64,000 nucleotides of DNA from Candidatus Eremiobacteria bacterium (GTDB lineage Bacteria; Vulcanimicrobiota; Vulcanimicrobiia; Vulcanimicrobiales; Vulcanimicrobiaceae): the NCBI GenBank assembly GCA_963737065.1, contig CAVTRC010000001.1, forward strand, positions 928,001 through 992,000. Direction: 5' to 3'. Made by a program: the position numbers and the translations under genes. Below, piece by piece: positions 55,970 through 59,393 of the stretch (position 1 is the stretch's first letter; every line of letters begins with the position of its first letter). The notes below the pieces were generated by a model. The model saw only the letters and a program-made list of their open reading frames with translations. It did no database searches and was not told where the DNA came from.

Positions 55970-55983
55970 CGCGCGATGATCGT

Positions 55984-56096
55984 GATTTAGCAATAAACTT
56001 CTCGCCGTCGTTAACGCACATACGATCCGCGCAGAACACGTCGCGGACGCGATTCAATATCGCAGTCTCGACCGGCTCGATGGACGGGCGGCGTAA
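55984..56096 (+). pseudogene. Decayed duplicate of the comM 3' end (remnant A)
   Basis: 56022-56096 encodes TIRAEHVADAIQYRSLDRLDGRAA* versus TIRAEHVAEAIQYRSLERLDGRAA* at 55895-55969; preceded by a KLLAV fragment. Confidence 0.9.
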
Positions 56097-56238
56097 CTGA
56101 CGATGATTCGTAAGTGCGTCAAATCCGACGAGCGGCCGGCGCCCCTCGATGCTGATGCGCGTCCATCACCCGGCGAATTGAGCATACGCCGCGACGGGAG
56201 CTTGACCATGATTGTTCGGATCGGAAACGGCACGTTCA

Positions 56239-57982
56239 TCACAGATCGACGCGACTCCGGTACGCATTGAGGACGTCGCGACGCGTGATGATACCGAGCA
56301 GTCCGCCGGTCGCGCGGTCGACTATGGGCAGCAGCGGCGTTTGCGGATCGGCCAGCGCAACGGCAGCTTCTTCAAGTGTGTCGTCGCTGGAGCAACACCG
56401 GAGCCGCCTGCACCAACTCCCCCACACGCAAGCCGGGATGTGCTGCAAGTGTGCCGGCAATGTCTGACGCAGTAACCATACCAATAAACTTACCGTCGGC
56501 GACGACCGGAACGACGAACTCCGGACTATGCTCCAGCTTCGCTGCTACTTCGTTGATCGGCTGCGACGCATCAGCGACGATATCTGGGACACGTTCCACG
56601 GCTGCAATCGTCACGCGCGAAAACGGGCGCGGTCTGCGCGCGCGCGCCCAGTCGATTCCTCGGCGCACGAGCTTCATCTCGTAAATGGTGTAACCCAGCA
56701 ACCTTCGTCCGAGAAGCGTCGAGATGACGGTGCAAACCATGAGCGGCAGAATGATCGTATAGTCGTTCGACATTTCGAACACGATCGTGATCGCCGTGAT
56801 GGGTGCTTCAGCGGCGGCGGCAAAGACGGCCGCCATGCCGACCAATCCGTACGCTGCCGACGATGCGGTCCAAGCCGGAAACAGGCGATGCACGATGCTT
56901 CCGAACGTGTTTCCGAGCATCGCTCCGGTGTACAGCGACGGAGCGAAGACGCCGCCGCTGCCGCCCGCGCCCAGCGTAAGCGACGTTGCAACGGGTTTGA
57001 GCACGGCGAGCGCGAGCGAATGTCGCGCCTGAACGTGCGCCGCAAGCATCGCGTCGACATAGTTGTAACCGACGCCGAAGATCTGGGGAAACCAGATGCC
57101 GATGACGCCGACGCAGCCGAAACCCACGGCCGCTTTCATCATCGGGTTGACACGCCACCCCTCGAAGCGGTCTTCGCAGAAATAGAGCAGCCGCACAAAG
57201 CCCGAAGCCCACAATGCGGCGATGATGCCGAGCACTGCATACAGTCCGAGCTCGGCTGGCGAGACGAGACGAAACGCCGACGCGGTGAACGACGGATGGT
57301 CGCCGAAGTGCGCCCGGCCGATCACGGCTGCAACGACGCTCGAGACAACGATTGTCGCAAACGATCGCGGTGCGAAATCGCCCAAGATCACTTCGCTCGC
57401 AAAGAATACGCCGCCGATCGGCGCATTGAACGTCGCGGAGATGCCCGCTGCCGCGCCGCAAGCGACCAGCGTGCGAATGATCGGAGCCGGCGCGCGCACG
57501 AGCTGCCCCAGCACCGAACCGATTGCCGAACCGATCTGGACGATCGGCCCTTCACGGCCGCAGCTACCGCCGAAACCGATGCAGGTTGCCGACGCGATGC
57601 TTTTAATCCCCATGACGCGAGGACGCATAATGCCGCCCTGCATGGCGACCGCTGCCATCACTTCAGGCACGCCGTGGCCTTTCGCTTCGCGTGCAAAGCG
57701 GTTCACGACGAACGCGGTGATGACGCCGCCCGCGATAAGCACCGGAACGACTTGGGCGTGTCCGAGAAAGCGCAGTGCCGGAGCAAGATGCCCGAACGCG
57801 AGCGTCTGCTCGCCCAAAATGAGATAACGAAAGCCCACCGCACCATAACCACCGCCGATGCCGACGACAATCGCCGCAAGCAGCAAGAACGTGCTTTGTC
57901 CAATCGCAAAGCGGCCGACGTCGAGACGGTAGCCGCGATCGGTTTCGACGTAGCGGACTCGTGGAAGCCTAGCGCGCGCCAT
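56239..57982 (-). pseudogene. CLC chloride channel/antiporter with C-terminal CBS pair, frameshifted near 56390 (possibly a sequencing error)
   Basis: GHGVPE, GREGP, FNAPIGG, GGVFAPSL, IYE; second CBS (SDDTLEEA...LPIVD...GIITRRD) continues in another frame. Confidence 0.88.
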
Positions 57983-58014
57983 GCGCGTGTCTTCGGCGCA
58001 TAAAGGAAAAAGCG

Positions 58015-58080
58015 CTAGTCGGCTCGATGAATCCATGCCTGTGCCGGTGTCGCGGCGCGCGGAACGGCGAATGCCGCTGC
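58015..58080 (+). pseudogene. Decayed internal comM fragment (remnant B)
   Basis: Reads LVGSMNPCLCRCRGARNGECRC versus [22 protein letters not shown] at 55463-55528; colinear with no gaps. Confidence 0.85.
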
Positions 58081-58184
58081 AATCGCGAAGTGCGATATCG
58101 CGTGGCGTAACTCGCCGGGTGACCGGTGTCGAAATGCGCGTTGGAAGCTTGCATCCGAGCAATCGTACGCACTACGCTACTACC

Positions 58185-59393
58185 ATGAGTATCATGCGAC
58201 GCTTCGCGGCGGCGATTGTTTTCGCGCCGGTGGTTTTTACGCTGTACCCGGCATCGGCGGCTACGACGAACGGTGACGCAGCAACAACAATAACGAACAT
58301 CGTACGCAAGGCGATGACGCAGCAAAATTTGAAGGCTGTCGTCGTACAAGTGCGTTCGAATGGACGAACGATTTATAGCGGCGCGTTCGGCGAATCGATG
58401 ACCGGCGTGCCGGCAACGCCGGACATGCATTTTCGCAACGGCGCGCTTGCATTCACGTACATGTCGACGCTTTTGTTGGAATTCGTCGATCAGAAAAAAG
58501 TAACGATGCAGACGAAGCTCTCGAAGTACTTTCCGAACCTTCCGAACGCCAATCGCATCACGCTGCGAGACCTCTCGCAGATGACGTCGGGATATGCGGA
58601 CTACGTATACCAACCAGAGGTGGAAAACGGGACGTACACCGATCCGTTCCGCCAATGGACACCCGAGGAATTGATTCACATCGGCGTATCGAAGCCGATG
58701 CAATTTGCGCCGGGCACCAACTGGGGCTACTCGCACACCAATTACGTCATCCTCGGACGCGTGCTGGAGAAGATCGCGCGCATGCCCCTGCAAGAGGCGC
58801 TGCGTCGATATGTCTTACAACCGATGGGTTTGGAAAACACGGCCGCGTCTACGACGCCCGCGATTCCGCAGCCCGCGCTGCACTCTTTTAGCTCCGAGCG
58901 GCGCGCGATGCTCAAGATCGCATCCGACATCCCGTTCTACGAAGAATCGACGTTTTGGAATCCGTCGTGGACGACGATCGAAGGCGCGGTCGAAACAACC
59001 GACATCTCAGACCTCAATACGTCGCTCGAAGCGGTCGCGGCCGGAAAACTGCTCTCTAAAGCATCGTCAGCGGCACAAATCAAGCCGAGTCTCGTCGGAT
59101 TCGGCCATGCGCAAGCGGGCTGCTCGGCGTGTCACAAAAATAGCTTCGCCTTTAACTACGGTCTGGGCGTGATCATTACGGGACCGTGGATCACGCAGAC
59201 GCTCGGATTTGCCGGCGCATCCGGAGCGGTTGGAATTTTACCGGGGCGGCAGCTCACGATCGCCGTGGAAGCGACGAACGGTCCGGGCGCGTACGACGCC
59301 AAAGGTAACGCGGGGCTCGGAGCCGTCACCGTTTTTCGCGAGCTTGCGAACGCGCTCGCACCGAAGACGATGCCTTCGCCTCCTCGTGAGTGA
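58185..59393 (+). CDS. Secreted serine hydrolase/beta-lactamase-fold protein with degenerate SxxK
   Basis: Signal peptide, MHFRNGALAF, ITLRDLSQMTSG, FAPGTNWGYSHTNY, PMGLENT. Confidence 0.85.
   Translation: MSIMRRFAAAIVFAPVVFTLYPASAATTNGDAATTITNIVRKAMTQQNLKAVVVQVRSNGRTIYSGAFGESMTGVPATPDMHFRNGALAFTYMSTLLLEFVDQKKVTMQTKLSKYFPNLPNANRITLRDLSQMTSGYADYVYQPEVENGTYTDPFRQWTPEELIHIGVSKPMQFAPGTNWGYSHTNYVILGRVLEKIARMPLQEALRRYVLQPMGLENTAASTTPAIPQPALHSFSSERRAMLKIASDIPFYEESTFWNPSWTTIEGAVETTDISDLNTSLEAVAAGKLLSKASSAAQIKPSLVGFGHAQAGCSACHKNSFAFNYGLGVIITGPWITQTLGFAGASGAVGILPGRQLTIAVEATNGPGAYDAKGNAGLGAVTVFRELANALAPKTMPSPPRE

Follow-up and report, generated by a model that had tools for sequence, protein, structure and literature searches.

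Downstream of the comM gene of a Candidatus Eremiobacteria bacterium lie two short partial copies of the 3′ end of the gene itself, here called remnants A and B. They are found in a stretch of 64,000 nucleotides (nt) of contig CAVTRC010000001.1, referred to below as the window, in a genome of 3.08 Mb (G000; the genomes with which it was compared also carry G-numbers). The original prediction, made from the letters of this stretch, had given the order comM, remnant A, a chloride channel gene, remnant B and a serine hydrolase gene, and this order was confirmed by open reading frames (ORFs) and Pfam matches. The features are as follows, in window coordinates.

54419-55969, plus strand: comM, 516 amino acids (aa), with Pfam matches to ChlI (8e-42), Mg_chelatase (2e-92) and Mg_chelatase_C (1e-28)
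55970-56007: spacer of 38 nt between the comM stop and remnant A, which, apart from a new tail, would be all that the younger of two proposed events added
56008-56107, plus strand: remnant A, read as a displaced comM tail, corresponding to comM nt ~1454-1551 plus ~10 nt beyond the stop
56239-57982, minus strand: cargo gene, a frameshifted chloride channel with CBS domains (CLC-CBS)
58014-58112, plus strand: remnant B, read as an older displaced tail, with comM nt 1044-1110 at 58014-58080 followed by a collapsed end
58185-59393, plus strand: serine hydrolase of the Beta-lactamase family, the start of the genus-conserved part of the downstream interval (87% and 83% aa identity to its counterparts in G005 and G003, respectively)

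Remnant A matches the live end of comM (55881-55980) with 78% identity over 100 nt (blastn E-value 3e-14 in a search of the whole 3.08-Mb genome). Translated in the comM frame, it reads TIRAEHVADAIQYRSLDRLDGRAA where the live tail reads TIRAEHVAEAIQYRSLERLDGRAA, each followed by a stop; the TAA stop of the remnant, at 56094-56096, is its own and in frame. The 25 codons compared differ from the live tail by 11 synonymous and only 2 non-synonymous changes. The first part of remnant B (58014-58080) matches 55462-55528 with 85% identity over 67 nt (E-value 3e-14 against the whole genome). Its counterpart lies 441-507 nt before the comM stop, in agreement with the roughly 500 nt that had been predicted. 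Remnant B shows 6 non-synonymous vs. 2 synonymous codon changes as well as deletions; its CPCG motif is destroyed and most of its length is lost. It begins 32 nt upstream of the start of the CLC gene (58014 vs. 57982). The collapse of its 3′ end, also predicted, proved to be real: the matching segment is followed by ATATCGC (58095-58101) and then by GGCGTAACT (58104-58112), both of which also end remnant A, where GGCGTAACT lies at 56090-56098. This last motif occurs four times on the plus strand of the genome, two of these being the ends of the remnants, and the chance of it landing in a 40-nt window is ~5e-5.

The best explanation is that remnants A and B are displaced 3′ ends of earlier comM alleles. 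Remnant A appears young and remnant B old, since the former has changed almost only at synonymous positions and kept its frame, while the latter has accumulated non-synonymous changes and shrunk. This order of age agrees with the order on the chromosome, where A is nearest comM and B is farther away, and it bears out the succession of events that had been proposed. No further comM fragment was found by blastn in the whole of G000. Comparison of this genome with itself for diverged same-strand repeats within 20 kb yielded 57 pairs, of which the two from comM alone are gene tails; the remainder consists of paralogues, tandem repeats and a single family of intergenic repeats, and no second gene-tail locus was seen. 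A candidate tail array at C1:2232149-2232266, 2236579-2236691 and 2243100-2243218 was rejected as an intergenic repeat with no gene tail. This repeat is ~115 nt long and is present near C1:2232149 in three same-strand copies of 83-85% identity within 11 kb.

Comparison with relatives places the true start of the cargo gene at the ATG at 57982 and its true stop at 56239. Because of a frameshift near 56372-56400, the final ~48 residues (the second CBS domain) are read in a different frame; this is due to a genuine truncation or to an indel error of the assembly. The closest relative of the CLC gene is found in another genus (G196; 86% aa and 80% nt identity), and the homology is confined to the coding sequence. 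Genus-mates have a 64% identical copy or a pseudogene, located elsewhere.

To see whether displaced tails recur, the protein ComM was searched by tblastn against the downstream DNA of relatives, as had been suggested. Twenty relatives were drawn from 35 genomes with a comM match, leaving aside loci at contig ends or split between contigs and five class-level genomes. Extra 3′ fragments were found downstream of a comM that was complete or almost so in 6 of 21 loci (G000, G005, G011, G013, G015 and G022) and none in the other 15. A search of the class with the 3′ third of ComM covered 385 genomes, of which 346 had a match and ~53, counted by hand, at least two. About half of the latter, chosen for good assemblies, were resolved, so that the resulting census of 13 remnant-bearing genomes is incomplete; it adds G071, G074, G077, G170, G296, G361 and G286 to the six above. 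It should be noted that our tallies of matches to comM, to its 3′ part, to CLC and to Cas1 include unpublished genomes, while the loci described in detail do not. Four genomes (G000, G011, G296 and G074) have two remnants each, the second remnant of G074 lying at the start of the next contig, followed by Cld-PanE-dut-nrdR. Nearly all remnants run from some point within comM to its natural stop; the exceptions are the G013 remnant, truncated at residue 416, and a mid fragment in G286. Four multi-match genomes (G160, G169, G236 and G085) proved to have a comM split by frameshifts and no remnant, and a fifth (G322) a double copy of comM in a contaminated bin. The comM gene is also frameshifted in several remnant-bearing relatives (G011, G071 and G077), through real decay or long-read indel errors.

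We then asked how the old and the new tails had diverged. In all nine long remnants, the ratio of non-synonymous to synonymous substitution rates (dN/dS), calculated for each remnant against its own genome's live tail, was low (0.02-0.18), with dS values of 0.16-1.6 and 0-2 stops per remnant. As a control, functional comM genes of different species gave a dN/dS of 0.03-0.04. Both tails have thus diverged as working genes, as comM genes do between species, and the end of comM would therefore have been imported from another lineage and not duplicated locally. This fits the earlier proposal that each event restores comM, here by means of an imported working tail.

The remnants lie in an interval that varies greatly in length and content among relatives and that, in G000, ends with the following genes.

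59326-60812: hyp223 (minus strand) and DUF72 (plus strand), the rest of the genus-level part of the variable interval
60750-63436, minus strand: Cld-PanE-dut-nrdR, a conserved block that closes the variable interval on its far side

Cld-PanE-dut-nrdR is found downstream of comM, at a variable distance, in 15 of the 20 relatives fetched; only PanE-dut-nrdR is present in G030, G034 and G037, only Cld in G025, and none of these genes in G008 and G019 within the stretch fetched. The serine hydrolase, hyp223 and DUF72 genes are common to the genus, and the genes directly adjoining comM are different in every genome. The variable cargo that had been foreseen between tail fragments was borne out: the cargo genes have no homologues across genomes, with the exception of one pyrroloquinoline quinone (PQQ) dehydrogenase fragment. 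Some inserts are short, from 38 nt to 2 kb, and the orientation of the cargo is irregular. The arrays are also polar. In G000, G005 and G077, the neighbours of the remnant are genes also present downstream of comM in relatives, and those peculiar to the genome are found between the remnant and the live comM. Old tails are thus linked to the older, genus-conserved genes, consistent with the outward push that the original prediction had described. The best explanation is that, in this bacterial family, the stretch from comM to Cld-PanE-dut-nrdR is a hot spot at which DNA is replaced.

One fragment was found away from this interval. In G070 (C1:3029000-3048500, at ~8690-10520 once oriented), a frameshifted comM 3′ fragment (residues 197-516) is joined to a PQQ dehydrogenase gene ~2.5 Mb from the intact comM, and a related PQQ fragment directly follows comM in G071. 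Since the ectopic G070 locus matches the G071 fragment, a piece made up of a comM tail plus cargo would have moved to another site.

Do the insertions share a joining point? The 16 downstream remnants and the G070 fragment provide 17 junctions, the second G074 remnant being left out because it is cut by the contig end. They fall at comM nt 456, 607, 867, 867, 906, 924, 924, 981, 992, 1044, 1139, 1263, 1346, 1351, 1379, 1381 and 1454. Breakpoints are thus scattered over codons 152-485, with no crossover core shared across insertions. The single integration point near the MNPCPCG codons that had been proposed is not supported by this spread over nt 456-1454; the junction of remnant B lies at this motif and no other remnant starts there. 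On the cargo side, no clear common motif was found at the 17 junctions (best local score 14, vs. a maximum of 11 in shuffled sequence). In two genomes the remnant opens with a stretch identical to the live gene before diverging (the first 125 nt in G071 and 117 nt in G286), as would result either from a crossover downstream of the join or from an att-type repeat.

Recombinases had also been suggested as a thing to look for. A Pfam scan of 308 ORFs downstream of comM in 26 genomes, extended to the ectopic G070 locus, revealed only two recombinase-type ORFs, an IS3 transposase in G071 and a 208-aa Phage_integrase ORF in G286. These were the only 2 of the 13 remnant-bearing genomes with such an ORF between comM and the remnant. 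The ORFs were called by a crude longest-ORF rule and many had no Pfam match, so that an unusual recombinase may have been missed. In G000, there was no recombinase among the window ORFs and no match to any searched family within ~170 kb of the locus, the nearest being to Phage_integrase (PF00589) at ~177 kb and to rve (PF00665) at ~261 kb; Resolvase (PF00239) had no match in the genome. The features expected of an integron were also sought. The spacer between remnant A and the CLC gene (56095-56245) has no attC-type fold (z = +1.28; 186 of 200 shuffled sequences fold at least as well), no IntI with attI lies beside the array in G000, and promoter and terminator scans gave counts no higher than those of shuffled sequence.

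The G286 locus (C3:1320500-1355500) deserves separate description. A 31-kb aromatic-catabolism island lies between the intact comM and the remnant, with direct repeats of 117 nt that are perfect. Besides the Phage_integrase ORF, it contains a PIN gene and the separate comM mid fragment (residues 197-290). The integrase ORF is 8 kb from the nearest repeat.

The model for which we see roughly even chances is one of 3′-end displacement, combining recombination anchored in comM with a non-homologous join at the far side. DNA from a related lineage, carrying a 3′ part of comM and whatever followed it in the donor, would pair with the resident comM by homologous recombination, and the other end of the imported DNA would join without homology inside the resident comM. 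The product would be a chimeric intact comM, followed by the imported DNA and then by what the resident gene had between the join point and its stop, still attached to the old downstream genes. In G000, an older event would have brought in the CLC gene and displaced remnant B, and a younger one would have brought in a new tail and 38 nt, displacing remnant A. The expectation that every event delivers cargo does not hold for the second of these, to which only the 38 nt can be attributed. Such a one-sided homologous plus illegitimate join, of the type known as homology-facilitated illegitimate recombination (HFIR), is what we infer. Two observations lend it indirect support. The last ~166 nt of the live G000 comM are mosaic, with 89% identity to G003 vs. 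75-77% to G001, G002 and G005. The identical lead-ins of 117-125 nt in G286 and G071 are as predicted for a crossover lying downstream of the join point. The route by which the DNA entered the cell and the arrival of the CLC gene together with tail A are likewise what we infer.

Similar arrays have been described elsewhere, and the same displacement model was proposed for type VI secretion system (T6SS) effector-immunity arrays and Rhs orphans, according to passages of PMC5361080. In the Rhs, CdiA and T6SS arrays treated there, whose proposed origin is HFIR, an intact gene is followed by orphaned 3′ ends with genes between them, as for comM; the newest end is also nearest the gene, no recombinase is present, and a conserved 5′ part serves as the homologous anchor (PMC5361080, same passages). 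The comM remnants resemble them in being orphan fragments that reach the natural 3′ end and in that the old end and the new one are separate working versions, neither being a decayed copy of the other (dN/dS of 0.02-0.18). The difference lies in what is exchanged. In those systems, the ends are dissimilar toxin domains with immunity partners, and variation is the point (passages of PMC5361080), whereas at comM one allele of a housekeeping helicase takes the place of an equivalent one, with arbitrary cargo (a channel, hydrolases, unknowns).

Several observations weigh against displacement by one-sided recombination. First, no donor arrangement was found: CLC does not adjoin comM in any of 348 family genomes where both positions are known, and no comM piece was found in 80 metagenome loci. 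This negative says little, because the closest CLC is only ~80% identical at the nt level, for which reason the true donor lineage would appear to be unsampled. Second, remnant A is closest to the genus-mate G003 (87% over 75 nt) and the CLC gene to another genus; these differing affinities do not fit a simple co-transfer, though remnant A is short. Third, a generic process should leave tails on other genes of G000 and none was seen. Fourth, junctions coincide exactly in different genera at nt 867 (G074 and G286) and nt 924 (G005 and G361), where 0.14 such coincidences would be expected by uniform chance according to our own estimate. These pairs may hint at preferred sites; it should be borne in mind that local alignments tend to begin at conserved motifs, and the cargo-side flanks within each pair are not significantly alike. 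Lastly, G286 looks like a classical island.

This last point leads to a possible, though clearly less probable, alternative, namely that the arrays are decayed site-specific islands, relics of tyrosine-recombinase elements or of integrase-less cis-mobilizable ones that carried a mimic of the comM 3′ end in their attP. Equally tentative is its corollary, that integrase genes were later deleted and that deletions eroded the 5′ ends of the remnants. Islands and prophages that insert at the 3′ end of a protein-coding gene and provide a replacement end are known, e.g. e14 in icd. As in such islands, the target gene is intact here thanks to an imported 3′ end, and a displaced pseudo-3′-end marks the far border. 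This rival is a serious one in view of G286, of the junctions that coincide and of comM being unique. The perfect repeats of G286 (with its catabolic genes and Phage_integrase ORF) and of G071 are those expected of an island, mobile elements do insert into comM in the family (the Cas1 element of G185 and G181 described below), and a functional mimic would account for the low dN/dS equally well. Unlike e14-type islands, however, which have an integrase and one fixed core, comM joins are spread over ~1000 nt. No integrase was found in 11 of the 13 remnant-bearing genomes, and independent insertions do not have the same crossover core, though the two coincidences speak in part for one. Recombinase-type ORFs are confined to G071 and G286 among the 13 genomes, that of G286 being distant from the repeats, cargo goes down to 38 nt to 2 kb, and the cargo-side ends have no clear motif, even in the coincident pairs.

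We regard as unlikely the broader proposal that the comM 3′ third is, in Eremiobacterota, a preferred landing zone for a recombinase-independent or trans-acting capture process, in which each event delivers cargo and a fresh comM end to build chronological cassette arrays. It might be tied to a conflict between elements that hit comM (e.g. those with Cas1) and the cell, which would restore this gene of transformation. Improbable, too, is a dedicated, integron-like gene-capture system acting in trans on the comM 3′ third. Ordered two-remnant arrays in four genomes, variable cargo, the coincident junction pairs and the position of comM as the sole such locus in G000 would be in keeping with it, and, as in integron cassette arrays, entry is at one end with older units pushed outward. 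Unlike integron arrays, those at comM have no IntI, no attC fold and no consistent orientation, and the target gene itself supplies the repeats between units. In addition, there is no conserved partner gene beside the arrays, promoter and terminator counts remain at shuffle level, cassette ends are not shared, one event was cargo-less, cargo size is as irregular as its orientation, and the tyrosine recombinases of G000 are all far off, with no serine recombinase match. The integron-like apparatus invoked by the original prediction thus finds no integrase, hairpin or shared cargo-side ends to rest on, and no tested feature supports a dedicated system of this kind. Finally, in-place duplication of the comM tail (in tandem or by template switching during replication) with decay of the extra copy is very improbable: remnant A and the spacer do form a tandem-like period of 127 nt and several remnants are closest to the comM of their own genome, but neutral decay of one copy predicts a dN/dS of ~0.5 or more, whereas 0.02-0.18 was found, dS reaches 0.4-1.6 with 0-2 stops, and the homology ends at the stop codon with no shared downstream segment.

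A different kind of insertion was seen within comM itself. The gene is split at codons 330-334 by an element of 15.9 kb in G185 (at 1670-17554 of locus L066, C3:289300-309200) and of 17.6 kb in G181 (on contig C13). The site named for integration of the Cas1 element is GGNACCGTNACNAT, and its counterpart in the window is as follows.

55406-55419, plus strand: GGGACCGTTACAAT, comM codons 330-334, counterpart of the 14-bp target duplication of the element; intact and unoccupied in G000

The G185 element encodes a 482-aa Cas1 (TIGR00287 score 75.7, cut-off 71.7) and has 55-bp perfect terminal inverted repeats (TIRs) and a 14-bp target duplication, GGCACCGTGACGAT. The ends of the G181 element are nearly identical to these and its Cas1 ORFs are in two pieces; a similar comM-splitting element appears to lie across contig breaks in G174 and perhaps in G301. 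Relatives of this Cas1, most of them not beside comM, are present in 68 of 348 family genomes, 49 of which are among the 91 genomes of one genus. G000 has no match to the Cas1, and the TIR has no match beyond chance in G000 or the other arrays. In casposons, the TIRs have a median of 56 and the target-site duplications a median of 15 (PMC4046053). The G185 element is like them in its Cas1 gene, ~55-bp TIRs and 14-bp target duplication. It is unlike them in that no polymerase (PolB) was recognised among the ORFs scanned in the G185 and G181 elements, and the element splits comM without leaving a tail copy. In PMC4046053 and PMC9939771, the word 'chelatase' is absent and 'comM' matches only the starts of words, 'common' or 'community' in the passages shown. 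The comM-splitting Cas1 element is a separate lead, and probably the more novel one.

At the far end of the window, a tandem repeat just upstream of nrdR (63665-63966) has a unit of 77 bp, present in 3.9 copies that are 99% identical. A 17-bp repeat lies at 63601-63668, and the tandem array near nrdR extends toward the window end.

The comM locus provides a family-wide example, in an uncultured soil phylum, of accessory genes accumulating beside a conserved gene where no mobile-element machinery is visible. Each displaced tail marks one in a succession of imports, and the order of the tails gives their order in time. Should one-sided recombination prove to be the cause, gene gain in metagenome-assembled genomes could in general be dated and given a direction from tails of this kind.

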